64,000 nucleotides of DNA from Candidatus Aenigmatarchaeota archaeon (lineage in GTDB: Archaea > Aenigmatarchaeota > Aenigmatarchaeia > PWEA01). A program made the position numbers and the translations under genes. Below are positions 3,337 through 57,881 of this stretch, one piece after another. The stretch's first letter is position 1, and each line of letters starts with the position of its first letter. The DNA lies in contig JBKHHD010000002.1 of the NCBI GenBank assembly GCA_046539325.1, positions 53,425 through 117,424 on the forward strand. The letters are read 5' to 3'. The notes beneath the pieces are model-generated. The model did no database searches. It had not been told where the DNA came from and saw nothing but the letters and a program-made list of their open reading frames with translations.

Positions 3337-3385
3337 AATTCATACCAACTACAGGCTAAAATTTCGGGTTTCCTAAAGAACATAC

Positions 3386-3786: not shown

Positions 3787-3866
3787 AAGGGACGATGAAT
3801 TGAGTTTTGTGAACACCCTTTGATCCCGAGAGGGAGATGATAGTAAGACGATCACAAGAGTCCCTT
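3787..3866 (+). ncRNA. Box C/D guide RNA in the 16S-23S ITS (predicted targets 23S U2552 and U1920)
   Basis: Terminal stem AAGGGAC/GTCCCTT, two K-turn motifs, 10- and 11-nt perfect complements to 23S obeying the D+5 rule. Confidence 0.85.
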
Positions 3867-35054: not shown

Positions 35055-35255
35055 GCCGGGGTAGCGAAGCCAGGTCCAACGCGCCGGATTTGAGAACGGA
35101 TCTATTGACGAGAGGATGATATAACTGTTTCAAGAGATCCGGTGGGCCGCGTAAGGTCCTGTATCTGTGGAAGTCCACGTGGGTTCAAAAGAGAACGCTT
35201 TGGAAGTGAAAACACCTTTTCCAAAGGGTTTCTGAAAGTCCCACCCCCGGCGCCA
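35055..35255 (+). tRNA. tRNA-Ser(TGA) with three introns (35095-35136, 35154-35171, 35190-35238), CCA encoded
   Basis: CCGGA-TT-TGA-G..A-TCCGG; BHB motifs at anticodon, variable arm and T-loop. Confidence 0.9.
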
Positions 35256-35273
35256 CATAAAAAAGGTGAAAAA

Positions 35274-35744
35274 ATGGTTGAAGAAAGGAAAAACATATTA
35301 AGAATTTTCAGGACGGACATTCCCGGAGACTGGAAAATAGGTGAAGGTCTGAGACAGCTAAAGGGTGTTAGCTTTTCAACAAGCAAGCCCATACTGAAAA
35401 AAGCAGATGTAGACCCTACCAAGGCCGCAGGGGATATAACTGATGAGGAAAAAGAATCTATAAAGGAAGTTATAAAGTCAGGACAGATCCCCTCGTACCT
35501 ACTCAACAGAAGGAAGGATCCAGAAATAGGAGAAGATAGAATGCTTACCTCAAACGACCTGGAAATTCAGGAGAGACAGGATATAGAGGATATGAAGAAG
35601 CTCGGCAGCTACAGAGGAATGCGTCACAGACATGGACTTCCGGTGAGAGGTCAGAAGACACAGTCCAGCTTCAGAGGAGACAGCTCTGTCGGTGTAGCTA
35701 CAGCTGAAATAAAGGCAGAAAAATCAGGGGAAGAAGGTGAATAA
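35274..35744 (+). CDS. rps13: Ribosomal protein uS13
   Basis: YRGMRH..GLPVRGQKT. Confidence 0.97.
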   Translation: MVEERKNILRIFRTDIPGDWKIGEGLRQLKGVSFSTSKPILKKADVDPTKAAGDITDEEKESIKEVIKSGQIPSYLLNRRKDPEIGEDRMLTSNDLEIQERQDIEDMKKLGSYRGMRHRHGLPVRGQKTQSSFRGDSSVGVATAEIKAEKSGEEGE

Positions 35745-35745
35745 A

Positions 35746-36228
35746 ATGGGGGATCCAAAGAAACAGAGAAAGAAGTATGAGAAGCCTCTTATACCCTGGG
35801 ACGAGAGAAGAATAGAGAACGACAAGGATATTATGAAGAACTACGGACTGAAAAGAAAGGAAGAGATACTCAAGATGGAAAGCTTTTTGAGAAAGCTGAG
35901 AAGGAGAGCAAGGGATGCTGCCGCAGGATCCTCCGAGAAGGAGAGAAATGAACTGCTTCAAAGGTGTAGGAACATCGGACTCATTGGCGAAGACGATGAT
36001 GTTGGACAGATCCTGCGAATCGAGCTGAAGGACGTACTTGAAAGAAGGCTTCAGACGCTTGTCGCAAAGATAGATGGCGTAAGAAGTCCTGGGCACGCAA
36101 GGCAGCTTCTGACACATGGCCATGTAAAAGTAGACGAAAAGGTAATGACTTCGTCTTCGTTCTTCGTTCCAAAGGATCTCGAGGACAAAATATCCGTAGA
36201 TAAAAAGGCACTGGTGATGGACGAATGA
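35746..36228 (+). CDS. rps4: Ribosomal protein uS4
   Basis: [21 protein letters not shown]. Confidence 0.97.
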
Positions 36229-36611
36229 GTCAGAGAAAAGGTCTAGCAAGAATACACTCGTCCGAGAACAACACTATCATACATATAACTGATATGAGCG
36301 GCGCAGAAACTATAAGCAGATACTCTGGTGGAATGGCTGTGGATCAGGACAGGGACAAAGGCGAGCCGTTTGCTGCTATGCAAGCAGCAAAGAAGGCAGC
36401 CAAAGAGGCAAAGGAAAAGGGAATTGACAAGGTAGATATAAAGGTAAGAGCTCCAGGCGGACACGGCTCAAAGAGCCCAGGTCCGGGAGCACAGCCTGCT
36501 ATCCGTGCTATAGCCAGAGCCGGAATGAAAATAGGCAAGATTGAAGATATAACTCCAGTGCCACATGATTCAACGAGAAGGCCTGGAGGCAAAAGAGGAA
36601 AGAGGGTCTGA
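36225..36611 (+). CDS. rps11: Ribosomal protein uS11
   Basis: [16 protein letters not shown]. Confidence 0.98.
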
Positions 36612-36613
36612 TT

Positions 36614-37396
36614 ATGGAATTTGAAAAGATTGAGGAGGACGACAAGAAGCTTAAATTTGTTACAAAGGATACAAATCCAGCTATGATGAACGCTTTGAGA
36701 AGGATCTCGATGAACTACATTCCTGTGCTTGCAATAGAGGACGTCGGAGTAAAGGAAAACAGTTCGCCGATATTCGACGAAGTTATAGCCCAGAGGCTGG
36801 GGCAGGTACCGCTTGTCTTTGATCCAGACAAGTTTACGTTGAAGGGAGAATGCGACTGTGAAGACGGCTGTCCTAACTGTGAGGTTGACTTCACGTTTGA
36901 AGGCGAAGGACTTGGAAGGCTTTACTCGAAGGACCTCGTCTGTGAGACGGGCGATATCGAGGTACTATATGACGAGATACCTATAACAGAGATGGATGAA
37001 AATCAGAGGGTCGAGCTTGAAGCAACCGCAGTATTATCGAAGGGAAAAGATCACTCGAAACATCAGGCAGCTATTTCCTCGTACCAGTACTACCCTATAA
37101 TCGATATAGACAACGATGAGCTCACGAAAGAAGAAAAGGGTCGCTGCGTCGAGGTGTGCCCAAAGGATGTTTTTGAGCTCGATGGCGGCGACCTGAAGGT
37201 TTCAGAGGAAAAGAAATGTACTGTATGCAAAGAATGCGTCAACGAAGTGGATACAGGCGTAGTAGTTACAGGCGACGAGGAGAAGTTCATATTCACCATA
37301 GAGTCTACCTGTTCACTAAGCCCCCAAGAAATAATTGAGAAGGCCGCTGACATACTTGAGAAGAAGTCCGAGAAGGTAGTCGAAAAGTTAAGCTAG
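36614..37396 (+). CDS. rpoD: RNA polymerase subunit D (Rpo3) with ferredoxin-like insert
   Basis: NALRR, CDCEDGCPNC, CPK..CTVCKEC. Confidence 0.96.
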   Translation: MEFEKIEEDDKKLKFVTKDTNPAMMNALRRISMNYIPVLAIEDVGVKENSSPIFDEVIAQRLGQVPLVFDPDKFTLKGECDCEDGCPNCEVDFTFEGEGLGRLYSKDLVCETGDIEVLYDEIPITEMDENQRVELEATAVLSKGKDHSKHQAAISSYQYYPIIDIDNDELTKEEKGRCVEVCPKDVFELDGGDLKVSEEKKCTVCKECVNEVDTGVVVTGDEEKFIFTIESTCSLSPQEIIEKAADILEKKSEKVVEKLS

Positions 37397-37538
37397 CGGG
37401 GGTAACCAAGCGGTCAAGGTAAAGATACGACTAAAGGTGCAGGACTTAAGCTCTCAGCTTAAGTATTGAGGCCCATTGGGCGATGATAAGAAATCCTGTG
37501 GCTTAGTGCCTTCGTCGGTTCGAATCCGGCCCCCCGCA
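37396..37538 (+). tRNA. tRNA-Leu(TAA) with D-loop (37418-37434) and 37/38 (37451-37492) introns
   Basis: GCGGGGG/CCCCCGC acceptor, CAGGA-CT-TAA-G..A-TCCTG, BHB motifs. Confidence 0.9.
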
Positions 37539-37558
37539 TCAACAAAGAGGTTTTGGAT

Positions 37559-37912
37559 ATGGAAAAAACGAACCCGGTACTGAAGAAGACTGTAAGCAGG
37601 CTCGAGGAGAAAGGCAGAAAGGAAGAGTTAGATTTATGGAAGGATCTCGCCAAGAGGCTGAAGAAGCCAAGAAGGAACAAAAGTTCGGTAAATATCTCAA
37701 AGATAAACAGACATGCAAAGGAAGGCGAAACTGTAGTCGTTCCAGGAAAAGTAACAGGCTACGGTAGCTTGGATAAGGATGTGGACGTTGCTGCATTTGA
37801 TTTTTCAAAAAGCGCAAAGGAGAAGGTGGAGGAAGGGGGCAAGGTTATGAGTATACTGGATCTAGCTGAGGAAAATCAGGAAGGCGAAAACGTAAGGATA
37901 ATGGAGGGTTAA
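37559..37912 (+). CDS. rpl18e: Ribosomal protein eL18
   Basis: VNISKINR, VVVPGKV. Confidence 0.96.
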   Translation: MEKTNPVLKKTVSRLEEKGRKEELDLWKDLAKRLKKPRRNKSSVNISKINRHAKEGETVVVPGKVTGYGSLDKDVDVAAFDFSKSAKEKVEEGGKVMSILDLAEENQEGENVRIMEG

Positions 37913-37913
37913 A

Positions 37914-38312
37914 ATGATCGTTGATGCAGAAAACCAGGTTATGGGGAGACTATCTTCGGAAGTAGCTTCGTTGTTGCTTGATGGGAAGGAAGTCAAGGTT
38001 ATCAACTCAGAGAAGGCAATCAAAACTGGCAAGCCTGAGGATACCGTAAAGAAATACCTTAAAAAGAAAAGTATCGGCGATCCGAGACACGGACCATATT
38101 CCTCGCTAAGGCCGGAAAACATACTCAGGGACTCGATAAAGGGAATGCTGCCCACGGAAAAGGAAATAGGAAGGCAGGCTCTTAAGAGATTGGTAATAGT
38201 TCAGGGGAACAGTGGTGAGGAAGGAAAAGCTATCTCAAAGAGCGCCGAGGATCTGACAACAAATTATATAACTCTTGAAGAGTTATCAGAAAGGATAGGT
38301 GGAAAACAATGA
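37914..38312 (+). CDS. rpl13: Ribosomal protein uL13
   Basis: DAEN.VMGRL, KGMLP. Confidence 0.95.
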   Translation: MIVDAENQVMGRLSSEVASLLLDGKEVKVINSEKAIKTGKPEDTVKKYLKKKSIGDPRHGPYSSLRPENILRDSIKGMLPTEKEIGRQALKRLVIVQGNSGEEGKAISKSAEDLTTNYITLEELSERIGGKQ

Positions 38313-38710
38313 CGATAAACGCTGTAGGTAAAAGAAAGGAAGCCAGGGCACAGGCAAAGGTCACAGAAGGAAGCGGAAATATAAGGATAAACTCAAGGCC
38401 TATCGAAAGCTTCAGCGATGAGATGTTCAGACTAATGATAAAGGAACCGCTGAAACTTGCAGAGGACAGAACAGAAGATGTAGATATAGATGTTGATGTA
38501 AACGGTGGAGGCAAAATGGGACAGGCAGAGGCTGTAAGACAGGCCATAGCTAAAGGACTTGTCGAGTTTACGGGAGATGAAAAGCTTGAGAAGAAGTTCG
38601 AAAACTACGACAGATACCTGCTTGTAAGGGACTCTCGCACGGCCGAACCACACAAACCTTCGGTCTCTTCAAAGGGAGCCAGAAAGCACAAACAGAGGAG
38701 CAAGAGGTGA
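38309..38710 (+). CDS. rps9: Ribosomal protein uS9
   Basis: GGGKMGQAEAVR, YDRYLLV. Confidence 0.96.
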   Translation: MTINAVGKRKEARAQAKVTEGSGNIRINSRPIESFSDEMFRLMIKEPLKLAEDRTEDVDIDVDVNGGGKMGQAEAVRQAIAKGLVEFTGDEKLEKKFENYDRYLLVRDSRTAEPHKPSVSSKGARKHKQRSKR

Positions 38711-38714
38711 CAAG

Positions 38715-38906
38715 ATGCTGATACCTGTAAGGTGTATAAGTTGCGGCAAGCCGGTAGGCCATCTATGGGAGGAGTTCAAAGAAAGAGAAGGAGAGGAAGA
38801 CACGAAGGAAGTTCTTGACGACCTCGGCCTCGAGAGGTACTGCTGCAGAAGCCTTTTCATAACACACACAGATTTAGCTGGAAAGGCATCAAAGTTCAAG
38901 AAGTAG
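38715..38906 (+). CDS. rpoN: RNA polymerase subunit N (Rpo10)
   Basis: IPVRCISCGK, RYCCR. Confidence 0.97.
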   Translation: MLIPVRCISCGKPVGHLWEEFKEREGEEDTKEVLDDLGLERYCCRSLFITHTDLAGKASKFKK

Positions 38907-38942
38907 CGCTAATATTTATTTATAATAAGTACAAGACTATTA

Positions 38943-40349
38943 GTGGTGACTATATTGAAGAAGATTTTACCCCTCCTGTCGGCATTCATTCTATTGTCGA
39001 TCTCAATGCCTACAGCAGCTGCACACCTGGAAGTAAGTTTCGAGGAGGAGGGTTCCTGTAAGATTTTGCCGCATACATACGAGATAAATATAACAAACAC
39101 ACACGATTCAGAGGATCTGATCCGGCTTAGCAGACCACGCGAGTTCTCAAGATGGATGTCTCTGTCGAGAAGTATTATGAGGATACAGGCAGGCGAGACC
39201 GAAACAACTGAGTTAACTATTGAAGCTCCGAGAAACGTTGAACTTGGCGAATACCAGACTAACTTTTCTATATTTTCCGAGGACTACGAAGATGTTTCAA
39301 CAACCGGAGAACTTTGCTTCATAGTTCTTAGAGACTATTCAATGATCGTCAGGGACTTTGCCGTAGACAAAGAGGAATACGGACCCATGGACCAGGTTAA
39401 CTTCTCTGTAACAGTTGAGAACGACGGTACAAAGGACTTCGACGACGGCGAGTTCAGAATAGAAGTAACTAAGGAAGGTGAGCAAATTGCAACTGATCTC
39501 GAGAAGTTCGAACTGGAAACAGGGAAAGGTAAAACTGTGGCCAGTTCAATAAACCTCAAGGAACATCAGGCACCAGGAACCTACGACGTAATGTACGAGG
39601 TAAGAGGTGCTGGCCACAAGATACAGTCCGGTGAAGCTAGCTTTGAAGTAATGGAGATGGCCAACTACGAGATAAGCGAAGAGTCGGATGGAAGATACAT
39701 CATAAGAACAAACACAATAAATGCAGAAAACAGAGGCAATATATTAGAACAAAAGGAAATAAATAGAACTGCAGTATTTCCTTTATCGCTGCTGACCACG
39801 GCCGAGGGGGCAGATGTGACCCGGGAAGGTCTCCATACAGTTTACAGCTGGAACATTGAACTTGAACCAGGTCAGTCCACACAGCTAAGTTATCAGATAA
39901 ACTACTGGCCTCTGTACATTCTAATAATACTTCTGGCTCTCATAGCGTTCAGGCTGTTCCTTTACATGAAAGCACCTGTCGTGAAGAAGGAGGTAGTCAA
40001 AAGCGAAATATCCGAAGACAAAAGGGTCCTCACCATATCGCTTCACGTCAAAAACCGGTTCTTCGGAAAAGCCAAAAACGTTATACTGGAGGACTCTGTG
40101 CTTTCCGTGACAAGAGTTCTGGACGAGTTCGATACGGTCAAACCAAACATTGAAAGGAAGGACGACGAAACAACGCTCAGGTGGAAGCTTGGTGAGATGT
40201 TGGCCGGAGACGATAGAGTTATACATTACAAGGTCAAAGTTCTTGTTGAATCCGTTGATGAGCTTGTCTTTCCTCCAGCCAAGGTAAGGGGTGCAGTAGG
40301 AAAGAGAACTTTCGAAAGATCTTCTTCCAAGGTAAAGCTTGGTGTTTAA
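38943..40349 (+). CDS. Secreted/membrane protein with Ig-like (CARDB-type) repeats
   Basis: Signal peptide, beta-rich repeats, one TM, C-terminal beta domain. Confidence 0.7.
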   Translation: MVTILKKILPLLSAFILLSISMPTAAAHLEVSFEEEGSCKILPHTYEINITNTHDSEDLIRLSRPREFSRWMSLSRSIMRIQAGETETTELTIEAPRNVELGEYQTNFSIFSEDYEDVSTTGELCFIVLRDYSMIVRDFAVDKEEYGPMDQVNFSVTVENDGTKDFDDGEFRIEVTKEGEQIATDLEKFELETGKGKTVASSINLKEHQAPGTYDVMYEVRGAGHKIQSGEASFEVMEMANYEISEESDGRYIIRTNTINAENRGNILEQKEINRTAVFPLSLLTTAEGADVTREGLHTVYSWNIELEPGQSTQLSYQINYWPLYILIILLALIAFRLFLYMKAPVVKKEVVKSEISEDKRVLTISLHVKNRFFGKAKNVILEDSVLSVTRVLDEFDTVKPNIERKDDETTLRWKLGEMLAGDDRVIHYKVKVLVESVDELVFPPAKVRGAVGKRTFERSSSKVKLGV

Positions 40350-40398
40350 CGTTACTCCAAAGAAAAGATTTAAAAAGTTTGGATTCAACGACTAGTAA

Positions 40399-40514
40399 GG
40401 CTGGCGGCCAAAGCGGAGGGGCAACTCCCGTACCCATCCGAACACGGAAGAAAAGTCCTCCAGCGATTTGGTCAGTATCCTCAATCCGAGGAGAACTCCA
40501 GGACGCTGCCAGCC
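40399..40514 (+). rRNA. rrf: 5S rRNA (unlinked from 16S-23S)
   Basis: GGCTGGC/GCCAGCC helix I, CCCGTACCCATCCGAACACGGAAG core. Confidence 0.92.
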
Positions 40515-40578
40515 GCTATTTATTCTCCGGGCTAAGCATAAATACTTAAAAGGTTTGTCACAAGAATGTTATGTCGTT

Positions 40579-40676
40579 GCCGCGATGGTGTAGCGGCTCA
40601 ACTCTCGAAGAGAGGGGGCCAAGCATAGAGCCCTGTCGAGGCTCTGACCCGGGTTCAAATCCCGGTCGCGGCGCCA
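40579..40676 (+). tRNA. tRNA-Asp(GTC) with D-loop intron (~40601-40622), CCA encoded
   Basis: GAGCC-CT-GTC-GA-GGCTC; BHB GGCT/GGCC. Confidence 0.9.
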
Positions 40677-40691
40677 TTCCCGAGGTATAAG

Positions 40692-40895
40692 ATGTCAGTA
40701 TCCAGCTGCCCAAGTCTACAGGATAATAAGGAGGAGTGCAGCTGCGCGTATTCAGGCTGTCCCAGAAAAGGCAAGTGTTGCGAATATATCAGGTACCATA
40801 AGAAAAGAGGAGAAGTCCCTGGTTGTTTGTTTCCCGAAGGGGCAGAGGGAAGCTACGACAGGTCCATAGAAAGGTTCGTGAAGGCAGTGAGCTAA
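40692..40895 (+). CDS. Small Cys-rich protein (DUF6485-like)
   Basis: CSCAY..CPRKGKCCE..YH..P.C.F..YDRS pattern. Confidence 0.75.
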   Translation: MSVSSCPSLQDNKEECSCAYSGCPRKGKCCEYIRYHKKRGEVPGCLFPEGAEGSYDRSIERFVKAVS

Positions 40896-40899
40896 GCAG

Positions 40900-41019
40900 G
40901 GGTCCGTAGCTCAGCCTGGCAGAGCACTGGGCTTTTAACTTAATATGTTAAAAGAGCTAGACGTTATGTCGATGATGAAAGAAACCCAGGAGTCGCGGGT
41001 TCAAATCCCGTCGGACCCA
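40900..41019 (+). tRNA. tRNA-Lys(TTT) with 37/38 intron (40938-40983)
   Basis: CTGGG-CT-TTT-A..A-CCCAG. Confidence 0.92.
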
Positions 41020-41157
41020 TAACAACCCATTCGTCAATAGTCTATAAAAAAACACCAAAACCTTTATAAACGTTAAGTTATAATGGAGTTTACCAGCTTA
41101 TGTGCTTTTCTCCGAAGATAGGGTGCGATATTTCGTATAAAATGTGATGGGGAGATT

Positions 41158-41403
41158 ATGGCAAAAGACTACAGCGTTACAGACCACAAGAGAGTACCGG
41201 AACATGAGGTTTTGGGGGACGAGGAAAAGGAAGAGCTTCTTGAAGAGCTGGGTGTAAAGGAACAGCAGCTTCCAAAGATATACGACACTGACCCCGTTGT
41301 CAAAGAGATAGACGCTTCAGTCGGTGACGTTCTTAAAATCAAAAGAAACAGTCTAACAGCAGGCAAGGCTTTGTACTATAGGCTAGTAATAGAGAAAAAA
41401 TAA
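41158..41403 (+). CDS. rpoH: RNA polymerase subunit H (Rpo5)
   Basis: VPEHEVL, LPKI..DPV, YYRLV. Confidence 0.97.
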   Translation: MAKDYSVTDHKRVPEHEVLGDEEKEELLEELGVKEQQLPKIYDTDPVVKEIDASVGDVLKIKRNSLTAGKALYYRLVIEKK

Positions 41404-41411
41404 CAGATAAA

Positions 41412-42902
41412 ATGAAAGGTAAAAAACTCCAGGCGCTTCTAAAGGCGTTCAAATCCGAGAAAGGGTTCGCAAAGTATCAGATAGAGGCCTACAATAGATT
41501 TGTAGACGAAAGGCTACAGGAGATAATAGACGGTATAGGAGAAATAGAGCCCGAGTCCGAGAAGCTGGGCGACTTCAAGATAGAGCTTGGCGAGGTGAGG
41601 GTTGGGGAACCTTCGGTAAAGGAGGCGGACGGAAGTCTAAGGCAGATACTCCCCAAGGAAGCGAGGTTAAGGGATATAACATACTCTGCGCCGATATTCC
41701 TTGAAATGACAACAAAGGCAGACGGTGAAGTTCATGAACAAAAGGAGGTAAAGATCGGTGAGCTTCCTGTAATGGTTAGGTCAAAGAAATGTCCGCTATC
41801 TGATATGACCGACGAAGAGCTTATAGAGGCAGGTGAAGACCCGCAGGATCTCGGCGGATACTTCCTTATAAACGGCACTGAAAGAGTTCTAATGCTTCTC
41901 GAGGAAGTGGCTCCAAACAGAGTCATTGTAGAGAAAAAGGACAAGAAGAAGGTAGAATACGCTGCAAGAATAAACTCTGAGAGGAGTGGTTGGGGTCAAA
42001 GGCATACTATAAACAAGAAAAGGGACGGTCTTCTAACAATTTCCTTTGCAAACGCACGAAAAGTCCCATTGGTCGTGGTTATGAGGGCGCTAGGACTCGA
42101 GACGGATAAAGATATCGTACAGGCAATAACCGAAGAGGAAGAGTATCAAGAGGAAATCTACGCGAACCTCTACGAAACAGAAGTCTCCGACACAGAGGAA
42201 GCTCTGAGCTATATAGGTAAGGGCATGAATGTATCGGAGGAAGAATATAGGAAAGAAAGGGCAGCAGAAGTAATAGACAAATATCTCCTGCCGCATATAA
42301 GTCAGGACGAAGAAGGTAGGATGGACAAGGCAATGTACCTCGGAAGATGCGCAAAAAAGATACTATACGTTGCAAACGGAGACCTTGAGCCAGATGACAT
42401 AGACCACTACAGAAACAAGAGGATAAGAACAAGCTCCGAGCTCCTGGAAATACTTATAAGGAGTAAGCTACTAGGAAGAGTTGGCTTGATTTCAAGGATA
42501 AAGTACAACTACAAGAAGATAGCCAGAAGAGGTAAGGTGCCAACTATAAATACTGTAGTCGAGTCCGATATGCTGACGGGGCAGATCCAGTCCGCTTTTG
42601 CAACCGGTCTATGGGTAGGTGGAAGGAGCGGTGTTTCACAGAGGCTGGAGAGAACGAACTACATAAAGACGCTCTCACATCTGAGAAATGTTACATCCCC
42701 GCTTTCAACCCAGCAGGAGCATTTCGACGCAAGGCAGCTCCATGCAACACACTGGGGAAGACTTGGAGCTACACAGACACCTGAAGGACCAACGATCGGC
42801 CTGAGGAAATACCTGGCGCTCATGGCGTCAATTTCCACAGGACTTCCGAAGGACGAAACAGAACAGTCCCTGGAAACTCTGGAAACTGAGATAAAGAGGT
42901 AA
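41412..42902 (+). CDS. rpoB2: RNA polymerase subunit B'' (Rpo2N)
   Basis: GGYFLINGTERV, DDIDHY.NKR, TPEG. Confidence 0.97.
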   Translation: MKGKKLQALLKAFKSEKGFAKYQIEAYNRFVDERLQEIIDGIGEIEPESEKLGDFKIELGEVRVGEPSVKEADGSLRQILPKEARLRDITYSAPIFLEMTTKADGEVHEQKEVKIGELPVMVRSKKCPLSDMTDEELIEAGEDPQDLGGYFLINGTERVLMLLEEVAPNRVIVEKKDKKKVEYAARINSERSGWGQRHTINKKRDGLLTISFANARKVPLVVVMRALGLETDKDIVQAITEEEEYQEEIYANLYETEVSDTEEALSYIGKGMNVSEEEYRKERAAEVIDKYLLPHISQDEEGRMDKAMYLGRCAKKILYVANGDLEPDDIDHYRNKRIRTSSELLEILIRSKLLGRVGLISRIKYNYKKIARRGKVPTINTVVESDMLTGQIQSAFATGLWVGGRSGVSQRLERTNYIKTLSHLRNVTSPLSTQQEHFDARQLHATHWGRLGATQTPEGPTIGLRKYLALMASISTGLPKDETEQSLETLETEIKR

Positions 42903-42907
42903 ATGAT

Positions 42908-44706: not shown

Positions 44707-44707
<1 letters not shown>
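42908..44707 (+). CDS. rpoB1: RNA polymerase subunit B' (Rpo2C)
   Basis: GDKFATRHGQKG, GGLRLGEME. Confidence 0.98.
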
Positions 44708-48337
<3,630 letters not shown>

Positions 48338-48338
48338 G

Positions 48339-48743
48339 ATGAAGAAAAAGTTTGACAAGGAAGCAATACAGGCCATAAATCTCTTTGAGGAAGAAACCGA
48401 CGTTGAGGTCAGGGACTTCATACACGACGACGAGTCCGCTTATTTTTTGGTAGAAGAAGGTAAAGCAGGATTAGCTATAGGTAAGAACGGCAAAAATATA
48501 AAGAACATTGGCGAGATGCTCGGGAAAAGGATCAAAGTATTCGAAAACGAAAAGGACGACAAAAAGCTTGTGAAAAACATGGTCATGGAGTCTAACTCCG
48601 TAAAGATAGAAGGCGACACTGCCTACGTAGATGTAGATGAGGAAGACAGAGGTAGGGTAATAGGTGCAAACGGCAGTAATATAGAAAAGGTAAGGACTCT
48701 GCTTAGAAGAAACAGCGATCTTAAGGATCTGAAGCTAGAGTAA
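48339..48743 (+). CDS. nusA: Archaeal NusA
   Basis: AIGKNGKN and VIGANGSN KH motifs. Confidence 0.93.
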   Translation: MKKKFDKEAIQAINLFEEETDVEVRDFIHDDESAYFLVEEGKAGLAIGKNGKNIKNIGEMLGKRIKVFENEKDDKKLVKNMVMESNSVKIEGDTAYVDVDEEDRGRVIGANGSNIEKVRTLLRRNSDLKDLKLE

Positions 48744-48783
48744 AGGAAAGCTTTATAATTTTATTCCGACCAGTACATTTCTA

Positions 48784-48887
48784 GGGTCCGTAGCTCAGTT
48801 GGCAGAGCGTCAGGCTCTTAACGTTTGGGGCTAACGTCCTGGAGGAAAGAAACCTGAAAGTCGCGGGTTCAAATCCCGTCGGACCCA
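48784..48887 (+). tRNA. tRNA-Lys(CTT) with 37/38 intron (48821-48851)
   Basis: TCAGG-CT-CTT-A..A-CCTGA. Confidence 0.92.
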
Positions 48888-48930
48888 TTCTACACTTTGT
48901 TCACTTTATAGATTTAACCCAGCAAAGAAA

Positions 48931-49185
48931 TCAAAGAAGAGAAACGTTCTCGACTTCAACTGAAGTCACGCCTTCCATGTCGCCTATACCGTTCTCTATA
49001 TCGTCGGTTCCTCCTTCGTCTTCGTTTCTAACAACTAAAAGCTTTAGAGCCGTTAGGCCAAAACCTATTTCCTCCCTTTCGGAGTCCTCCACAGGAAACT
49101 CCTCAGAAATTCTGTCCTTAAGTTCATCTAGATCAACTTCAGTTCCTTCCGGTGTCACCTTAAGCCAAATAGCTACATCTCCCAT
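48931..49185 (-). CDS. ef1b: Elongation factor 1-beta
   Basis: MGDV..LKV.P, EEIGFGL.AL. Confidence 0.95.
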   Translation of the reverse strand: MGDVAIWLKVTPEGTEVDLDELKDRISEEFPVEDSEREEIGFGLTALKLLVVRNEDEGGTDDIENGIGDMEGVTSVEVENVSLL

Positions 49186-49189
49186 TTTA

Positions 49190-49375
49190 TCAGTCCTTTC
49201 TTTCGCCTGTTATCTTTTTATTCTTCCAGCTTTCGCTCTTCAGTTTCTTGGTCTTCCCGAAACCACAAGCTGAGCACTGTCCCTTGGAGCGGTTGAAGGA
49301 TTTTCTGCCGCATCTTCTACAGACTCCGTGGGTCTGCTTCTTCTTCTTTCCTGCAGATGGTGTGCCCTTTGACAT
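49190..49375 (-). CDS. rpl37e: Ribosomal protein eL37
   Basis: KGTPS, CRRCG, CSACGFG. Confidence 0.96.
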
Positions 49376-49405
49376 CTAAATCACGCCTCAAGGAATCAGA
49401 TAGTT

Positions 49406-49636
49406 CTATTCGGGCGAGGCAAAAATCACGTTGTCTCCTCGTACAACTATGGTCCCTAGCTTGGTCTTGTTTCCGTCCTTGCCCATTTTCTCAGCGTTTT
49501 CTAGCCAAAGGTTAAGATGCAGGTCGAAAGCTACAAGCTTTCCAGCTATCTTCTCACCGTTTTTTAGGTTAGCGATGACCCTGTCTCCTCTGGCATTTTC
49601 GAGCGCATCCAATGGTCTTTTACCGTCTTCACCCAT
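49406..49636 (-). CDS. Sm-like (Lsm) protein
   Basis: FDLHLNL, VRGDNV; next to rpl37e. Confidence 0.95.
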   Translation of the reverse strand: MGEDGKRPLDALENARGDRVIANLKNGEKIAGKLVAFDLHLNLWLENAEKMGKDGNKTKLGTIVVRGDNVIFASPE

Positions 49637-49719
49637 GGTATCACGTTTTCTTTTATTGAAAGAGTATTTAAAGGTATGGGTCGAAAATATTTAAGTGATG
49701 AACTAAAAGGTGTGATGAT

Positions 49720-50094
49720 ATGTTAAGAAACAGGTCAAGAAGAAGATTAACCGGTGGCAAGAGAAAAAGCAAGAGGAAGTTCAGGAAGCACGAGCTGAAG
49801 AGAGAAAGTATCCTTTGCAAGGTAGGGAACAAGGAACGCAAGAAGAGAATAAACGTTAGGGGCAACCAGGAAAAAGTGAGAGCAAGGACAGTCGGAAAGT
49901 TAAACGTAGCCGACAGTGAAGGAGATACGAACATGGTAAAGATAGAGGACGTGCTCGAAAATGAGGCCAACTCCCATTTCGTCAGAAGGAGTGCACTGAC
50001 AAAGGGGACAGTAGTCAAGACGGAAAACGGCAAGGCAAAGATAACATCAAGGCCTGGTCAAGAAGGTATTGTAAACGCTGTAAGGATAGAGTAA
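49720..50094 (+). CDS. rps8e: Ribosomal protein eS8
   Basis: TSRPGQEGIVNA. Confidence 0.96.
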   Translation: MLRNRSRRRLTGGKRKSKRKFRKHELKRESILCKVGNKERKKRINVRGNQEKVRARTVGKLNVADSEGDTNMVKIEDVLENEANSHFVRRSALTKGTVVKTENGKAKITSRPGQEGIVNAVRIE

Positions 50095-50694
50095 CTACCT
50101 CCTCTCAAACCTGTAGAACCTCACCTTTACATTTTCTTTTTCCTCTTCATGCCAAGGCATAGTTCTTTTCAGAGGAAAGACAAGTTCCTTGCTTAAAGTC
50201 ACTTTACCGCCACACTTCCTGACGTATTTTCTTACAAAATCGTCGGTCTTGGACATATGGAATGAGTAGACAAGGGGCGCTATCTCCAATGATTTCTCTA
50301 TGAACGGCCTATCGCTTCCTCTTTTCTGGGATCCAAAGGGTGGGTTCTGGATAACCAGATCACCTTCGCCATCAACCCCTCTCACGTCCTTGTTCTTGAA
50401 AGTTATATCTACGTCTACCTTGTCTGCGTTTTCCCTTGCAACCCTTATAACTTTCTCGTCTATGTCCACACAAACTACCTCCCCGGCACCAAGTAGCTTA
50501 GCCCCTATTCCCAAGGTTCCTGTTCCACAGCCCAGATCATAAACTTTACTGCCTTTAAATTCTCCTTTCATATAGATGTTCCAGAGAACCGAAGAAGCTA
50601 ATTCAGGCGGAGTTCTGTACTGCTCTAGCTCCGCGCTTGGACTTTCAAAGCTCTCAAGACTCTGCAGTTTAATCTGAAGCTCTTTCATGTTCAT
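50095..50694 (-). CDS. METTL5-like RNA methyltransferase
   Basis: LEQY.TP, DLGCGTG, NPPFG. Confidence 0.9.
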   Translation of the reverse strand: MNMKELQIKLQSLESFESPSAELEQYRTPPELASSVLWNIYMKGEFKGSKVYDLGCGTGTLGIGAKLLGAGEVVCVDIDEKVIRVARENADKVDVDITFKNKDVRGVDGEGDLVIQNPPFGSQKRGSDRPFIEKSLEIAPLVYSFHMSKTDDFVRKYVRKCGGKVTLSKELVFPLKRTMPWHEEEKENVKVRFYRFERR

Positions 50695-50753
50695 ATTTCT
50701 GAATTAGGTTACAATTTTTATATAATTCCATGAAACTATTTTTACGGGGTAAA

Positions 50754-50897
50754 ATGTCAGCTCGTTTACTTGGGAGTATAGATATAGTAGGCGGCTTTCT
50801 TCTCATACTTGCAAGGAGTCACTACCCAACGTTTTCAACTCTTTTCCTCATCTTTGGAATAATTTTAATAGGCAAAGGCCTTTACTCAATGTTATGA
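50754..50897 (+). CDS. 47-aa two-TM membrane protein (not in ORF track)
   Basis: MSARLLGSIDIVGGFLLIL...IGKGLYSML; stop overlaps next start (ATGA). Confidence 0.65.
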   Translation: MSARLLGSIDIVGGFLLILARSHYPTFSTLFLIFGIILIGKGLYSML

Positions 50898-51451
50898 TCC
50901 TTGATAAAGACTTCTACTGCAGAGATCCCGCAGAGGTTGCAAAGGATATACTAGGTAAGAAGCTTGTCAAAGGAAATCTGCAAGGAAAAATAGTAGAAAC
51001 TGAAGCATATTACGGTGAAGATGACCCCGCTTCACATGCATCAAACGGAAAGACTCAGAGGAACAGGCTAATGTTTGGACAAGGTGGAAGGGTCTATGTC
51101 TATCTATGCTACGGCATGTACCACTTGCTTAACTTTACAACAGGGGAAGAAGGTAAGCCAGGAGCGGTCCTTATAAGGGCTGTTGAACCTCTACAAGGCC
51201 TGGAAAAAATGAAAAGTAATAGAAATACTTCGGAGGAAAATCTGACAACGGGCCCAGGAAAGCTTACGGAGGCCTTTGGAATAACAAACAAAGAAAACGG
51301 AGAGGATGCAACCCAAGAGGCTTCGGTAATAACTGTGGAAGGTCTGGGTAATTGCAGTGAAATAAAAAGCACAAAGAGGATAGGAGTAAGTGAACAGCAT
51401 AAAAGGGATCTACGGTTCGTATGCAAGGGCTCAGATTTCCTCAGCAGGTAA
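50894..51451 (+). CDS. mpg: 3-methyladenine DNA glycosylase (MPG/AAG family)
   Basis: IVETEAY, YVYLCYG, AVLIRAVEP, GPGKL. Confidence 0.95.
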   Translation: MILDKDFYCRDPAEVAKDILGKKLVKGNLQGKIVETEAYYGEDDPASHASNGKTQRNRLMFGQGGRVYVYLCYGMYHLLNFTTGEEGKPGAVLIRAVEPLQGLEKMKSNRNTSEENLTTGPGKLTEAFGITNKENGEDATQEASVITVEGLGNCSEIKSTKRIGVSEQHKRDLRFVCKGSDFLSR

Positions 51452-51484
51452 TAATTTTTTAAGTTAGAAACTCTTACTTATACT

Positions 51485-53095
51485 ATGCGGGGGACGAAGT
51501 GGGTTTTTATATCAGGAGGAGTTCTTTCTGGTCTCGGAAAGGGCCTTGTATCTGCTTCTGTGGGAAGGTTTATGCAGTCCAGAGGCTACGAAGTCGTCCC
51601 TATAAAATGTGACGGCTACCTGAACGTGGACCCCGGGACTATGAACCCAATAGAGCACGGCGAAGTATTCGTATTAAACGACGGCGGTGAGGTGGATATG
51701 GATTTCGGGCACTACGAAAGGTTTCTAGGAATTGAAACAAAGTTCGACTGGAACTTGACCTCAGGCAAAATATTCCAATCCGTTATCGAAAAGGAGCGTG
51801 ACGGAGAGTATCTTGGTAAGACTGTGCAGATGATACCGCACGTAACCGATGAAATAAAGGGAAGGTTAAAGAGCGCGGCCGAAGAAGAGGATGCTGATGT
51901 AGTTCTAGTTGAGATAGGCGGAACGGTCGGCGACATGGAAAATATGATATTTCTTGAGGCTGCTAGACAGATGCAGCTCGAACTACCGGAGGAAGATACC
52001 TGCCTTGTCCACGTGACTCTTGTTCCCTGGCTCGAGGCTGTAGGAGAACAGAAAACCAAGCCAACGCAGCATTCTATAAAGGAGCTCGAATCAATGGGCC
52101 TTGAAGCCAATGTCATAGTCGGAAGGGCAGAAGACAGTCTGGAAGACAAAACAAAGGATAAGATATCACTGTTCTGCAACGTTCCGAAAAAGCACGTCGT
52201 ATCTAATCCCGATGTCGAGGAAGTCTATAGAATACCTTTGAACCTGAAGGAGGATGACCTAGACGATGTCGTCTCCGACGAACTTGAACTGAGAAGCGAA
52301 GAGGTTCACATGGAAAGATGGAGGGAACTTGTAGAAAACCTGGAGGATCCTGAAGAAGAAGTAGAAATAGCTATATGTGGAAAGTATACAAAGCTCGAGG
52401 ACTCTTATGTATCGATAAAGGAAGCCTTGAACCACTGCTCCGCGCATCTAAAAACAGAGATGAGTTACAACTTTATAGAAACCACGGAAATAGAAAATGG
52501 CGAGAAAACTGTCAAAGAAGTGCTGGAAGGATCAGACGGTGTAATAATTCCAGGTGGTTTTGGAAGAAGAGGAGCAGAAGGTAAGATAAAGGTTGCTGAA
52601 TACTGCCGGAAGAACGGAGTTCCTATCCTTGGTCTCTGCTACGGGCTTCAACTCATGGTCACTGAGTTCGCAAGAAACAAATGCAACTTAGAAGGAGCTA
52701 ACAGCACTGAAGTAGATGAAGACACAGAAAATCCAGTTATAGATTTAATACCTGAGCAGAAAAACGTCGAGGCCAAAGGAGGTACTATGAGGTTGGGAGG
52801 GCAGGTAACAGAAATAAAGAAGGGGTCTATGGCTGAAGATATTTACGGCAAGAACAAAATAGAGGAAAGGTTCAGACACAGGTACGAAGTGAATCCAAAA
52901 TACCATGACTGTCTCAAAGAAAACGGCCTAAAGCTTACAGGTGTAGCGGAAAAGGAGAATCATATAGTCCAGATAGTAGAGCTGGAGGAACATCCCTTTT
53001 ACTTCGCGACACAGTTCCATCCGGAGTTCACTTCGCAGTTCGAAGAACCCAACCCTGTTTTCATGGAATTCGTAAAATCTTGCAAGGGAAGGTAG
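51485..53095 (+). CDS. pyrG: CTP synthase
   Basis: GGVLSGLGKG, KTKPTQ, CYG, QFHPEF. Confidence 0.98.
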   Translation: MRGTKWVFISGGVLSGLGKGLVSASVGRFMQSRGYEVVPIKCDGYLNVDPGTMNPIEHGEVFVLNDGGEVDMDFGHYERFLGIETKFDWNLTSGKIFQSVIEKERDGEYLGKTVQMIPHVTDEIKGRLKSAAEEEDADVVLVEIGGTVGDMENMIFLEAARQMQLELPEEDTCLVHVTLVPWLEAVGEQKTKPTQHSIKELESMGLEANVIVGRAEDSLEDKTKDKISLFCNVPKKHVVSNPDVEEVYRIPLNLKEDDLDDVVSDELELRSEEVHMERWRELVENLEDPEEEVEIAICGKYTKLEDSYVSIKEALNHCSAHLKTEMSYNFIETTEIENGEKTVKEVLEGSDGVIIPGGFGRRGAEGKIKVAEYCRKNGVPILGLCYGLQLMVTEFARNKCNLEGANSTEVDEDTENPVIDLIPEQKNVEAKGGTMRLGGQVTEIKKGSMAEDIYGKNKIEERFRHRYEVNPKYHDCLKENGLKLTGVAEKENHIVQIVELEEHPFYFATQFHPEFTSQFEEPNPVFMEFVKSCKGR

Positions 53096-53100
53096 TTTCT

Positions 53101-54222
53101 ATGGATATGAACTGGATACTCATACGTTATGGAGAAATAGGTCTCAAAAGCGACTACGTTCGCAGAAGCTTCGAGGACAGACTTATCAACAACATAAGAC
53201 AGGGTCTAGAAGAAAGGGGAATCAATGGAAAGGTGCAAAGAGGCTACTACGGAAGGATCTTCATCAGTACCGAAGAGGTAGAAAAGGCCTCAGAAGTATT
53301 AGAAAGGACCTTTGGTGTAGTTAGCTTCTCTCCTTGCAAAAAAATTTCCACGGAGCTTGAAGAAATTACAGATGAGCTTTCAAGACTGGGACAAGAGGTT
53401 TTGCAGGAAGGTGAAAGTTTTGCTGTGAGAGCGAGGAGGACAGGCGACCACTCCTTCTCCTCAAAGGACGTTGAAGAAAGAGCTGGCTCTAAGATACTTG
53501 AAAGTAAAAACGTCGAAGTGGACCTTGACGATCCGGACAAAAAGGTAATGGCTGACATAAGACAGGGCCAGAGCTACATATTCAATGAAAAAAGAAAGGG
53601 TCCCGGAGGCCTGCCTATAGGAACACAGGGCAAAGTTCTTTCACTCTTCCGAGGAGGCTGCAGCTCCTTGCTGGCTACATGGATGATGATGAAAAGGGGT
53701 TGCTCCGTTACTATTTTACACGGAAAGATGGAGCCTTACTCGGATGACGAAAACTTTGAAAGGTCCTTTGAAGTACTGAAAAACTGGAACCATGGCTCTT
53801 CCTTGGAAGTACTTGAGTTCGATCTAGGAAGTAAGATATTCCAGTTTTCGGAAGAAGGCGAAAAGGGCTACAACTGCGCTCTGTGCAGAAGATTTTTGCA
53901 CAGGCTTGCTTCAAAGGTCACCGAGGAAACAGGCTGTAAGGCGATAGTAACAGGAGACTATATAAACGGGCGCTTCGATCAGTTCCACCTGTACGACGCC
54001 GTTACTCGTACACCGATAATAAGGCCTCTTGTAGGGATGGACAAGGAGGAGATAAATAAAAGGTGTGGTGAAATAGCTCCTGATACAGAGTTCAGAGGTA
54101 GCTGCGAGGCCAAAGATAAGGGAATTTCTGAGGTAAAACAAGAAAGGCTCGAAGAGCTTGAAAAAAAGATTGATATTGAAAAATTGGTTGAAGAAGTAGG
54201 AAAAGAGGTGGTTGAGGATTAA
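53101..54222 (+). CDS. thiI: ThiI-like THUMP protein with degenerate PP-loop
   Basis: IRYGEIGLK, GPGGLP.GTQG, MMKRG; SGGIDS replaced by RGGCSS. Confidence 0.85.
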   Translation: MDMNWILIRYGEIGLKSDYVRRSFEDRLINNIRQGLEERGINGKVQRGYYGRIFISTEEVEKASEVLERTFGVVSFSPCKKISTELEEITDELSRLGQEVLQEGESFAVRARRTGDHSFSSKDVEERAGSKILESKNVEVDLDDPDKKVMADIRQGQSYIFNEKRKGPGGLPIGTQGKVLSLFRGGCSSLLATWMMMKRGCSVTILHGKMEPYSDDENFERSFEVLKNWNHGSSLEVLEFDLGSKIFQFSEEGEKGYNCALCRRFLHRLASKVTEETGCKAIVTGDYINGRFDQFHLYDAVTRTPIIRPLVGMDKEEINKRCGEIAPDTEFRGSCEAKDKGISEVKQERLEELEKKIDIEKLVEEVGKEVVED

Positions 54223-54604
54223 AATACCCAACGAAGAGCTTGTTGAGAGAATAATAAAGCAGAAGCTTAAGGAGAAGGGTGTAGTAAGAAGTCAGGAGGA
54301 GTTAGGAGAGATTGTTGAAAAGGAGTTGAAGGAAATAGACGATTCCTTTCAAATTTCACCAGAAAGAACTAGGAGAATAGCACTAAACGTCTCCGGCGTA
54401 GACGTAACCGTGGAGACAAAGAGATCAGGGGCAAGTAAGCCTGAAAAGTGTCCTGTATGTAACGAAGAGTTGAAGGGTCTATACGCAAAAAACCTTGAAG
54501 GAGAGAGGACACAGGTTGGATTTCGATGCGATAACTGCGGCTACCACGGTGACGTCGAAGAGTTTATGCCTATGAGGTATGAGTTCAAGCTCATCAAGGA
54601 TTAA
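54212..54604 (+). CDS. Hypothetical Zn-ribbon protein
   Basis: CPVC..CDNCGY, terminal P.RY.F. Confidence 0.7.
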   Translation: MRIKIPNEELVERIIKQKLKEKGVVRSQEELGEIVEKELKEIDDSFQISPERTRRIALNVSGVDVTVETKRSGASKPEKCPVCNEELKGLYAKNLEGERTQVGFRCDNCGYHGDVEEFMPMRYEFKLIKD

Positions 54605-54637
54605 ATTCTTATAGATCAAAACAGTTTCGTTAAGTGC

Positions 54638-54854
54638 GCCGGTGTGGCCGAGTCAGGCTCAAGGCGGTGGATTCGAGTCTGGATGTGTTGAGCAAACGCG
54701 ATGAAAGAGAAACATCCACTGGGCGTTAAGGACAAGTACGTAGGCCTTTGCCTACGTCGGTCGACTAGGCCCGCGCAGGTTCAAAAGAAAACCCTTTCGA
54801 AAAGTGTTTTCATTCCCAAAGAAAGGTTTTCGGAAAATCCTGCCGCCGGCGCCA
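54638..54854 (+). tRNA. tRNA-Ser(CGA) with three introns (54678-54713, ~54730-54767, 54786-54837), CCA encoded
   Basis: GCCGGTG/CGCCGGC acceptor, GTGGA-TT-CGA-G..A-TCCAC. Confidence 0.88.
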
Positions 54855-57231: not shown

Positions 57232-57768
57232 ATGGGGCAAGAGTTTACTGGGGAGATTTATTCTGACTGGATGAAGTCCACTCAGGAGAAAAAGTACAGG
57301 GAAATCATCTTAGAGTTTATACTTCCCATCAAGGATAAAATAGATCTGAGCAGTGACAGAGTACTGGATGTAGGGGTAGGTAAAGGATGGTTCGAGAAGA
57401 AGCTACACGAAAGAGAGATTGAATCAAGTATTACAGGTCTGGATGTCGATAAAACGGACTTGGCGATTGAAGGAATCGACTTTGTAGTAGGTGATGGGAA
57501 CAGAATGCCCTTTGAAGACTCTAGCTTTGATTTTGTGATCTCATTCGATACAATCCATCTTCTAAAAAGGCCAAAGGAAATAGAGAGAGTAGTTTCAGAA
57601 GGAGGCTATGCTCTGATCTCGACATACTGCAACGAAAGAAATTTTAAAAGTAGAGGCGACAAAGTTAAATCATTGTTCGACATGGAAATATTGAAGGAGG
57701 GCGTAGTTGGTGATCCAAGCCACGAAATGAGCTACGTGGTGCTTTTCAGAAATGGGTCCGTGGTCTAG
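57232..57768 (+). CDS. Class I SAM-dependent methyltransferase
   Basis: VLDVGVGKG, MPFEDSSFDFV. Confidence 0.88.
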   Translation: MGQEFTGEIYSDWMKSTQEKKYREIILEFILPIKDKIDLSSDRVLDVGVGKGWFEKKLHEREIESSITGLDVDKTDLAIEGIDFVVGDGNRMPFEDSSFDFVISFDTIHLLKRPKEIERVVSEGGYALISTYCNERNFKSRGDKVKSLFDMEILKEGVVGDPSHEMSYVVLFRNGSVV

Positions 57769-57881
57769 TGGCTAAGAACCTTTTCCGCTGACGCGCAAAA
57801 CGTTCACGAAAAGGATTGTCCACAAATGACGTCGCCTTGACATGGCGAAGGTCCCCCGTTCAAATCGGGGCGGACCCACCA
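57754..57881 (+). tRNA. tRNA-Val(GAC) with D-loop intron (~57774-57825), CCA encoded
   Basis: GGGTCCG/CGGACCC acceptor, TCGCC-TT-GAC-AT-GGCGA. Confidence 0.9.

Follow-up and report, generated by a model that had tools for sequence, protein, structure and literature searches.

Why transfer RNA (tRNA) introns persist is an old question, and a group of tRNA genes from Candidatus Aenigmatarchaeota archaeon raises it in a concrete form: do the introns in their anticodon loops serve the very tRNAs that they interrupt? The genes lie in a stretch of 64,000 nucleotides (nt), called the window in what follows, which is taken from contig C2 of the host assembly (G000:C2:53425-117424; 715 kb in 10 contigs, about 45% G+C and an estimated completeness of about 91%). 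A sequence-only reading had proposed that the anticodon introns of tRNA-Ser(UGA), tRNA-Leu(UAA), tRNA-Lys(UUU) and tRNA-Ser(CGA), between window positions 35095 and 54713, encode minimal box C/D guides for their own host tRNAs. Our analysis of the sequences leads us to regard the anticodon introns as probable cis-acting guides of the box C/D type for 2'-O-methylation, each built on a single kink-turn (K-turn) and directed at nt 34 or nt 39 of the pre-tRNA (Nm34 or Nm39). On this reading, about half of the canonical introns of one genome would acquire a concrete function for their host tRNA, and one that can be tested.

Layout of the anticodon introns in the window

Three of the four introns have the common layout that the sequence-only reading had described, composed of an antisense element, a D'-like box (UUGA), a hairpin or short loop and a C'-like box containing GAUGA. 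The limits that it gave are exact: the Ser(UGA) intron starts at 35095, and the Ser(CGA) intron ends at 54713. All four genes are on the forward strand, and coordinates are those of the window. The register of each guide is described here by N5, the fifth guide base upstream of the D' box, counted from the base adjoining UUGA.

The tRNA-Ser(UGA) gene (35055–35255), delimited by eye and recognized by ARAGORN after intron removal, carries two introns, one at the canonical 37/38 site and one in the T loop (35190–35238). Its anticodon intron has 42 nt (35095–35136) and reads CGGAUCUA-UUGA-CGAGAG-GAUGAUA, with the guide at 35097–35104, the D' box at 35105–35108, the loop at 35109–35114 and the C' box at 35115–35121. 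Guide bases N2 to N8 form seven Watson-Crick pairs with the final two intron bases and nt 38–42, which places N5 opposite U39. In the tRNA-Leu(UAA) gene (37396–37541), which has a 13-nt insert in the D region (about 37421–37433) besides the canonical intron, the anticodon intron is also 42 nt long (37451–37492) and reads GCUUAAGUA-UUGA-GGCCCAUUGGGC-GAUGAUA, where the guide occupies 37457–37465, the D' box 37466–37469, the hairpin 37470–37481 and the C' box 37482–37488. Here the duplex extends from N2 to N10, with nine pairs to nt 31–37 and two intron bases, and N5 pairs with U34. The tRNA-Ser(CGA) gene (54638–54854) has a canonical intron, a T-loop intron (54786–54837) and probably an insert in the variable arm as well. 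Its anticodon intron of 36 nt (54678–54713) reads UGGAUGUG-UUGA-GCAAACGC-GAUGAAA, made up of the guide (54680–54687), the D' box (54688–54691), the hairpin (54692–54699) and the C' box (54700–54706); N2 to N8 form seven pairs and N5 again meets U39.

The fourth gene, tRNA-Lys(UUU) (40900–41019), matches the Rfam tRNA model with 57.6 bits and is called tRNA-Lys(ttt) by ARAGORN. Its anticodon intron of 46 nt (40938–40983) had been described as degenerate, correctly: it retains a perfect C' box, GAUGAUGA (40971–40978), yet the place of the D' box (40957–40960) is taken by CUAG, which leaves the pair of boxes for a K-turn incomplete in this genome. The antisense element GUUAAAAGAG (40947–40956) is nevertheless in place, followed after CUAG by a spacer (40961–40970), and GUUAAAAG is antisense over 8 bp to nt 32–37 and two intron bases, with an A that pairs with U34 in the N5 register. 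The pairings of N5 with U39, U34 and U39, which lie within seven, nine and seven contiguous pairs, are those that the sequence-only reading had named; it had given U34 as the probable partner in the Lys intron.

Occurrence of the layout in the whole genome

We annotated 17 canonical 37/38 introns genome-wide, a lower bound because genes interrupted in the acceptor or T stem may be overlooked. Each was scanned for NUGA followed after 3–45 nt by UGA, with an antisense element of at least seven contiguous pairs, at most two of them G-U, whose N5 meets nt 34 or nt 39. Eight of the 17 show this layout, with duplexes of 7–10 bp: Leu(UAA), Ser(UGA) and Ser(CGA) in the window and five outside it, namely Trp, Met(CAU) and Leu(CAA) with N5 on C34, Gln(UUG) on U34 and Thr(UGU) on U39. 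The strategy had been proposed to have spread over several tRNAs, and its spread is wider than claimed. The tRNA-Trp intron provides a positive control within the genome, as it contains the same guide-UUGA-hairpin-GAUGA unit with N5 on C34. Most of the guide introns are 36–57 nt long, and each has a single guide with one box of either type, D'-like and C'-like.

The register is specific. N5 falls on any other exon position between nt 27 and 43 in none of the 17 introns, and when the introns were dinucleotide-shuffled 2000 times, 0.051 of them passed on average and never more than 2, compared with the 8 observed. The tRNAs guided at nt 34 all read purine-ending split codon boxes (Leu UUR, Gln CAR, Lys AAR, Met AUG and Trp UGG). 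Wobble restriction matters in such boxes, which may be why the wobble ribose would be methylated.

Conservation and covariation among relatives

The layout persists well beyond the host genome, with both the D'-box spacing and the complementarity to the host tRNA conserved in relatives. The exact Leu(UAA) pattern, which joins the anticodon loop to the guide CUUAAGU and to NUGA in the correct register, is found once per genome in 87 of 371 genomes of the phylum, in 59 of 170 genera and in 29 of the 98 genomes that are at least 90% complete; the reversed pattern, used as a control, occurs in none of the 371. We examined 57 Leu(UAA) loci, from which a regular expression returned a complete intron in 48 and failed on 9. 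A downstream NNUGA is present in 45 of the 48. In relatives the D' box also appears as CUGA, AUGA or GUGA and the C' box as NNUGA, and the segment between the boxes is either a hairpin or a short A-rich loop resembling a K-loop. The UGA boxes have been lost from the Leu(UAA) intron of genome G025.

A loose genome-wide scan for an anticodon arm plus guide gave 186 matches, most of them false, and the other families were then restricted to loci identified by homology and filtered by anticodon. The Ser(UGA) intron has the guide, an NUGA box and an RAUGA box in all nine loci of the host's own family, as judged by eye. Thr(UGU) is conserved in eight of eight family loci, with UCGA as the D' box in two of them, and the Trp layout is kept in all eight genomes of the genus. 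Leu(CAA) was recovered by the scan in seven of nine loci of the genus and family, and by eye in one further genome of the order. The Met guide is present in seven genomes, two of which belong to other families of the class. For Ser(CGA), the duplex within the genus has at least 7 bp in the host, G003 and G006 and 6 bp in G004 and G007. These counts leave out two Leu(CAA) loci (L061, L066) and two Ser(CGA) loci (L208, L209) in which the patterns could read no intron. In the Lys(UUU) intron, UUGA stands in the correct register in G009, of the same order, and in G034, of the same class, so the guide looks ancestral, its D' box seemingly decaying, or tolerant, in this genus.

One Ser(UGA) locus from another family of the order (G012:C96, L220) has a longer intron with GGAUGAG, CUGA and GAUGAUGA boxes and no antisense to nt 38–43; it may be a different, or dual-box, type of intron guide.

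Variation among these introns is compensatory at several levels. The Leu(UAA) hairpin stems vary by lineage yet remain paired (GGAAC/GUUCC, GCAGAA/UUCUGC, GUGUGC/GCACAU and UCGC/GCGA). In the 48 complete Leu(UAA) introns, the first base of the D' box covaries with the second base after the GA of the C' box (C' base 6): U is matched by A in 30 of 31 cases and C by G in six of six, and the eight cases with A at D' base 1 have mixed partners. By its position and covariation, the D'1:C'6 pair appears as the equivalent of the pair between C1 of box D and G6 of box C in the K-turn of C/D RNAs, and it explains why UUGA occurs together with GAUGAUA in this genome. The boxes are thus variants of the consensus box C (RUGAUGA) and box D (CUGA), which build a K-turn with tandem G.A pairs.

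The guide likewise changes with its target. In the two Leu paralogues N5 follows the wobble base, being A for the U34 of Leu(UAA) and G for the C34 of Leu(CAA). In the Ser(UGA) intron of G001, a change of N3 from C to U is compensated by a change of the last intron base from G to A. This second pair involves an intron base, which indicates that the duplex is kept by selection and that the unspliced pre-tRNA is the substrate. In addition to the unit on C34, the Trp intron (82 nt; locus G000:C1:116081-116240, minus strand) contains a second antisense element, GGAUGU, which pairs with the final intron bases and nt 38–41 and which becomes CAGGUUU, together with an altered anticodon stem, in G006 and G002. 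The base that faces nt 39 is always the fifth upstream of a conserved hairpin, and there is no NUGA box at that place.

Protein machinery and predicted order of events

The genome encodes the three proteins that such guides would need: fibrillarin (PF01269, 273.3 bits), Nop5 (PF01798, 202.4 bits) and L7Ae (PF01248, 106.8 bits). The first two, whose absence would have spoken against the sequence-only reading, are encoded by adjoining genes on contig C2. Of the outcomes named as refuting that reading, none appeared among those that sequence can address. It also encodes one splicing endonuclease of 388 amino acids with two catalytic-type domains. In RNAfold minimum-energy folds of nt 27–43 plus the intron, the duplex between guide and target forms in Ser(UGA), Leu(UAA), Lys(UUU), Leu(CAA), Met and Trp, showing a thermodynamic preference for this pairing. 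A bulge-helix-bulge, the substrate of splicing, with a 4-bp helix between two 3-nt bulges, can be drawn by hand for Leu(UAA), where UAAG faces nt 32–35, and fits for Ser(UGA) with CAAG and for Leu(CAA) with UGAG. In each of these three splice folds, the four bases that pair with nt 32–35 lie immediately 3' of the C' box or overlap it. As the bases adjacent to C' are needed for the bulge-helix-bulge, the guide fold and the splice fold would be mutually exclusive; the splice fold would require refolding, and methylation would come before splicing.

From these features we infer the following course of events. In the unspliced pre-tRNA, the antisense element of the intron, 6–10 nt long, would pair either with the anticodon loop (nt 31–37 and the first intron bases) or with the 3' strand of the anticodon stem (nt 38–43 and the last intron bases). 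The D'-like box, usually UUGA, the hairpin or short loop and the C'-like box, NNUGA-N-A, would fold into a K-turn or K-loop, the predicted binding site of L7Ae. L7Ae would then bring in Nop5 and fibrillarin, a ribonucleoprotein (RNP) assembling on the one K-turn, and the ribose opposite N5 would be methylated: that of nt 34 in Leu(UAA), Leu(CAA), Met, Trp, Gln(UUG) and, ancestrally, Lys(UUU), and that of nt 39 in Ser(UGA), Ser(CGA) and Thr(UGU). Thereafter the RNA would refold into the bulge-helix-bulge, in which nt 32–35 are paired by the C' region and the intron's 3' end. The released intron, probably circular, could continue to act in trans.

Weighing the guide assignment and its alternatives

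Several observations weigh against this assignment. The main departure from known archaeal C/D RNPs is architectural, as these are described as needing juxtaposed C/D and C'/D' motifs with guides of 12 nt. The introns have no such two-K-turn architecture, each containing one D'-like and one C'-like box, and a strict regular expression for dual C/D guides has no match in the genome; one might speculate that two RNAs on one Nop5 dimer would restore the symmetry. The guide duplexes are short (6–10 bp), the D' box is UUGA instead of the consensus CUGA, and for Ser(CGA) no canonical bulge-helix-bulge could be drawn by hand. Nine of the 17 canonical introns have no clear guide: Gly(UCC), Thr(GGU), Ser(GGA), Lys(CUU), Pro(GGG), Ile(UAU), Val(CAC), Cys(GCA) and the degenerate Lys(UUU), whose D' place reads CUAG, CCGA or CCAA within the family. 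Guides to U39 were observed in the host's own family only, and the one Ser(UGA) locus recovered beyond it, that of G012, is without the antisense element. The Ser(CGA) duplex is weakened in G001, and the first Trp duplex has just 5–6 contiguous pairs in G007 and G002, the guide of G004 being that of G007. A single gene of the SpoU methylase family in the genome could serve some Nm site. The bare K-turn-hairpin motif, finally, is not enriched genome-wide, with 54 occurrences observed and 39–58 in random genomes, so the specificity of the layout rests on its combination with the antisense register.

The last of these figures, together with the commonness of UGA and GA motifs, would be expected if the resemblance had arisen by chance in AU-rich introns. 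The combined layout behaves otherwise: it is present in eight of 17 introns, far above the shuffles, and in 87 of 371 genomes as against none for the reversed pattern, and we reject chance resemblance on these two controls as next to impossible. A more substantial alternative is that the elements are nonfunctional, decaying relics of C/D small RNA (sRNA) genes once inserted in tRNA introns. Such sRNAs have been termed mobile (PMC3491384), and the D' box of Lys(UUU) decayed in its own family, the weakened Ser(CGA) guide of G001 and the vanished UGA boxes of G025 Leu(UAA) are what decay would look like. The register, however, is kept exactly, and the persistence of the elements throughout the phylum, accompanied by compensation in the hairpin, in D'1:C'6 and between guide and target, indicates purifying selection; relics are a very unlikely explanation.

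A K-turn and an antisense element could also form a folding or splicing device, in which the intron is bound by L7Ae and the antisense pairing keeps the anticodon arm open, chaperoning the pre-tRNA or timing its splicing without any methylation. In the folds drawn by hand, the C' box and the intron's 3' end overlap bases of the bulge-helix-bulge helix, so that L7Ae binding would control splicing; the antisense duplexes favoured in the minimum-energy folds and the single K-turn per intron suit such a device as well. It does not predict, however, that the paired base 5 nt from D' should in eight of eight introns be nt 34 or nt 39, that the Trp control should point at C34, that fibrillarin and Nop5 should be encoded, or that the targets should match the wobble sites described as guided by C/D RNAs in Pyrococcus (PMC7994747), and we consider it improbable. 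The remaining possibility is that the working guides are the excised, probably circular introns, acting mainly in trans on other copies of the pre-tRNA or on other RNAs. It is favoured by in vitro work on Haloferax pre-tRNA-Trp (PMC2584109, PMC7994747) and by the known circularisation of archaeal tRNA introns (PMC7994747), and in a circle the single K-turn would close a loop that holds the guide. For pre-tRNA targets, action in cis and in trans leave the same sequence signature. The duplexes, however, take in one to three intron bases next to the splice site, one of which covaries with the guide, which points to an unspliced substrate. An antisense scan of ribosomal RNA (rRNA) with 10-mers beside NUGA gave 194 matches, taken as noise in a scan that had no random control, and at this noise level the intron guides show no convincing complementarity to rRNA. 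We therefore find action mainly in trans quite improbable, and methylation guided in cis on the pre-tRNA remains the reading that we prefer.

A related element in the rRNA spacer

The same layout is found outside tRNA genes. The spacer between the 16S and 23S rRNA genes contains, at window positions 3809–3842 on the forward strand, an element that reads GUGAACACCCU-UUGA-UCCCGAGAGGGA-GAUGAUA and pairs over 10 bp with the A-loop of 23S rRNA. Its N5 pairs with the U at window position 6582, which aligns to base 2553 of the annotated 2905-nt Escherichia coli 23S gene, in the motif UGUUC, and which we take to be Um2552 in standard numbering, the product of RlmE in E. coli. G001 and G006 have the element too, the latter with a compensatory change in the hairpin. 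Matches were found in three of the 41 genomes searched, a count limited by the fact that rRNA operons are often unassembled.

The FtsJ family, to which enzymes of the RlmE and Trm7 type belong, has no match in the host genome nor in any of the eight other genomes of the same family, although at 91% completeness the absence from the host is not proven. The family was detected in every one of 14 control genomes when the default cut-off was applied, and in 13 of them at an expectation value of 1e-5. Both the missing alternative enzyme and the spacer element of like design speak for the guide reading of the introns. Across the 41 relatives, 14 have a match, mostly of 24–35 bits, and we draw no correlation with the guides.

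These findings allow a broader proposal, which we consider plausible and put forward tentatively. Throughout the phylum, Nm34, Nm39 and the universally conserved Um of the 23S A-loop may be made through natural single-K-turn, 'half-mer' C/D guides that are stored in discarded parts of their substrates, tRNA introns and the rRNA spacer, and that replace enzymes of the FtsJ/Trm7 type. Guide function would then be what retains the introns, and the one-K-turn cis guide would represent a minimal, perhaps ancestral, C/D RNP. Under such a scheme, a streamlined genome can lose protein-only methyltransferases yet retain the modifications.

Other elements of the rRNA region were noted in passing. Upstream of the 16S gene, window positions 884–916 read GAGCCUUGGACGUU-CUGA-CGUCCAGC-GAUGACC, with just 8 bp of complementarity to 23S nt 459; this may be another guide, or chance. 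The spacer between the 16S gene and the tRNA-Ala gene (2527–3385) measures 859 nt, unusually long given the small genome. Two further K-turn-hairpin candidates, at C3:64170 and C4:59890, are without complementarity to rRNA or tRNA; they look like coding sequence or chance and were rejected.

Comparison with known guide RNAs

A single L7Ae site next to one guide, formed where boxes of the D' and C' type flank a short loop or stem, is the arrangement found in the K-loops of C'/D' motifs and in half-mer C/D RNAs. The latter are laboratory constructs for in vitro and structural work, and in natural sRNAs a K-loop is not known to occur without a terminal C/D K-turn. If one K-turn suffices in vivo, the view that archaeal C/D RNPs must contain two motifs has to be revised, and the introns offer a natural set of minimal substrates for structural work.

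The closest known system is the euryarchaeal pre-tRNA-Trp intron, known from Haloferax volcanii and, as sR50, from Pyrococcus, which in Haloferax guides Cm34 and Um39 (PMC7994747, PMC4090602, PMC2584109). As here, the guide is housed in the 37/38 intron of the tRNA that it targets, its duplexes cross from exon into intron and the targets are nt 34 and nt 39; methylation has to precede splicing there, as it would here, because the guide fold and the splice fold compete (PMC7994747, PMC4090602, PMC2584109). The known Trp introns, however, are 65–103 nt long and have C/D and C'/D' pairs with two guides, whereas those described here mostly have 36–57 nt and one guide. A further difference is that at least eight tRNAs are served here, whereas a 2014 review terms the Trp intron 'a unique example' (PMC4090602). 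A 2008 survey describes the Trp guide as always intronic and the Met guide as always a separate gene, 'always exonic', and gives the pre-tRNA as the substrate of the Trp and Met guides of Haloferax (PMC2584109).

Pyrococcus has four C/D sRNAs directed at wobble bases, and their targets are tRNA-Leu(CAA), Leu(UAA), Met and Trp (PMC7994747). Exactly these four tRNAs are also guided at nt 34 here, but from within their own introns. The trans-acting Met guides of Pyrococcus and the haloarchaea also address nt 34, with a pairing that takes in intron bases and thus has the pre-tRNA as its substrate (PMC7994747, PMC2584109). The trans-acting wobble guides differ from the present introns in being separate genes with two K-turn motifs, whereas here the guide lies within the intron of its own target. 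For tRNA-Gln(UUG), Um34 has been reported in Sulfolobus acidocaldarius (PMC7668247).

The arrangement had been put forward as one not known to be described. This stands for most of the tRNAs and fails for tRNA-Met, since a 2012 report on Nanoarchaeum equitans proposes the 66-nt intron of its elongator tRNA-Met, a stable and abundant RNA, as a C/D sRNA (PMC3491384). By its description, that intron resembles ours in its DPANN-type host, its non-Trp tRNA, its single box C and single box D and its stable GC hairpin (PMC3491384). It concerns a single tRNA, and the passages describing it state neither target nor register (PMC3491384), whereas the Met intron here is one of a family of eight, has an explicit N5-to-C34 register and is conserved across the phylum. 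Within the incomplete body of literature covered, we found no guides housed in introns of Leu, Gln, Ser, Thr or Lys tRNAs and no natural single-K-turn guides. The principle is already known; what is new is how far it has spread, to half of a genome's canonical introns, together with a minimal design of one K-turn and conservation throughout the phylum.

Genome setting, tRNA annotation and other introns

The window contains the rRNA operon, the genes for RNase P RNA and 5S rRNA and numerous tRNA genes. Its DNA is matched in sequencing runs from microbial mat and hypersaline lake metagenomes of a single study, with no RNA run among those listed, and genome sizes in the phylum, 0.3–2 Mb, are DPANN-like. 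The tRNA genes are unusually fragmented, with up to three introns per gene distributed over the 37/38 site, the D region, the variable arm, the anticodon stem and the T loop. Because of these introns, ARAGORN, without or with its intron option, and the Rfam tRNA model overlook or misassign most of the tRNA genes. A custom finder was too loose in its first version (1626 raw matches) and gave 62 matches in its second, of which 38 were retained by composition and by eye; one of them, on contig C4, was afterwards deemed false.

The gene assignments are backed by in-silico removal of the introns, after which ARAGORN returns the expected tRNA and anticodon for Lys(ttt), Ser(tga), Leu(taa) and Ser(cga). 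For Lys(ttt) it suffices to take out the canonical intron, and the other three calls need one more segment removed. Rfam tRNA matches back the Lys, Met, Trp and Leu(CAA) genes; in the Rfam search of the introns, no C/D family was matched and the tRNA model alone gave hits. Finders that discard tRNA introns, or that seek dual-guide sRNAs only, would overlook guides of the present kind.

Several introns at other sites deserve mention. The tRNA-Ala(UGC) gene in the rRNA spacer (window 3386–3591) has a D-loop intron and a 96-nt T-loop intron (3482–3577). This T-loop (59/60) intron has sequence blocks in common with those of Ser(UGA) (35190–35238) and Ser(CGA) (54786–54837): CUUUGGAA, then G or nothing, then UGAAAACAC, and later UUCCAAAGGGUUU, an optional U, CUG and finally A or G. 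All three hold RUGA and CUGA elements, and from their shared blocks they look like a conserved intron family. The tRNA-Val(GAC) gene (window 57754–57878) and the tRNA-Val(CAC) gene (G000:C6:3694-3868) carry a near-identical D-loop intron that contains AACCUUUUCCGCUGACGCGCAAAACGUUCACGAAAAG, and several further non-canonical introns have blocks of the form AACCUUUU...CGAAAAAGG in common; such shared blocks suggest that introns have spread between genes. A D-loop intron is present in tRNA-Asp(GUC) (window 40579–40673) too, where ARAGORN without intron handling gives a shifted gene (40602–40676). A tRNA with the anticodon UAU, for Ile, is uncommon in archaea; one is encoded at G000:C6:4491-4645, with a canonical intron of 38 nt and no guide.

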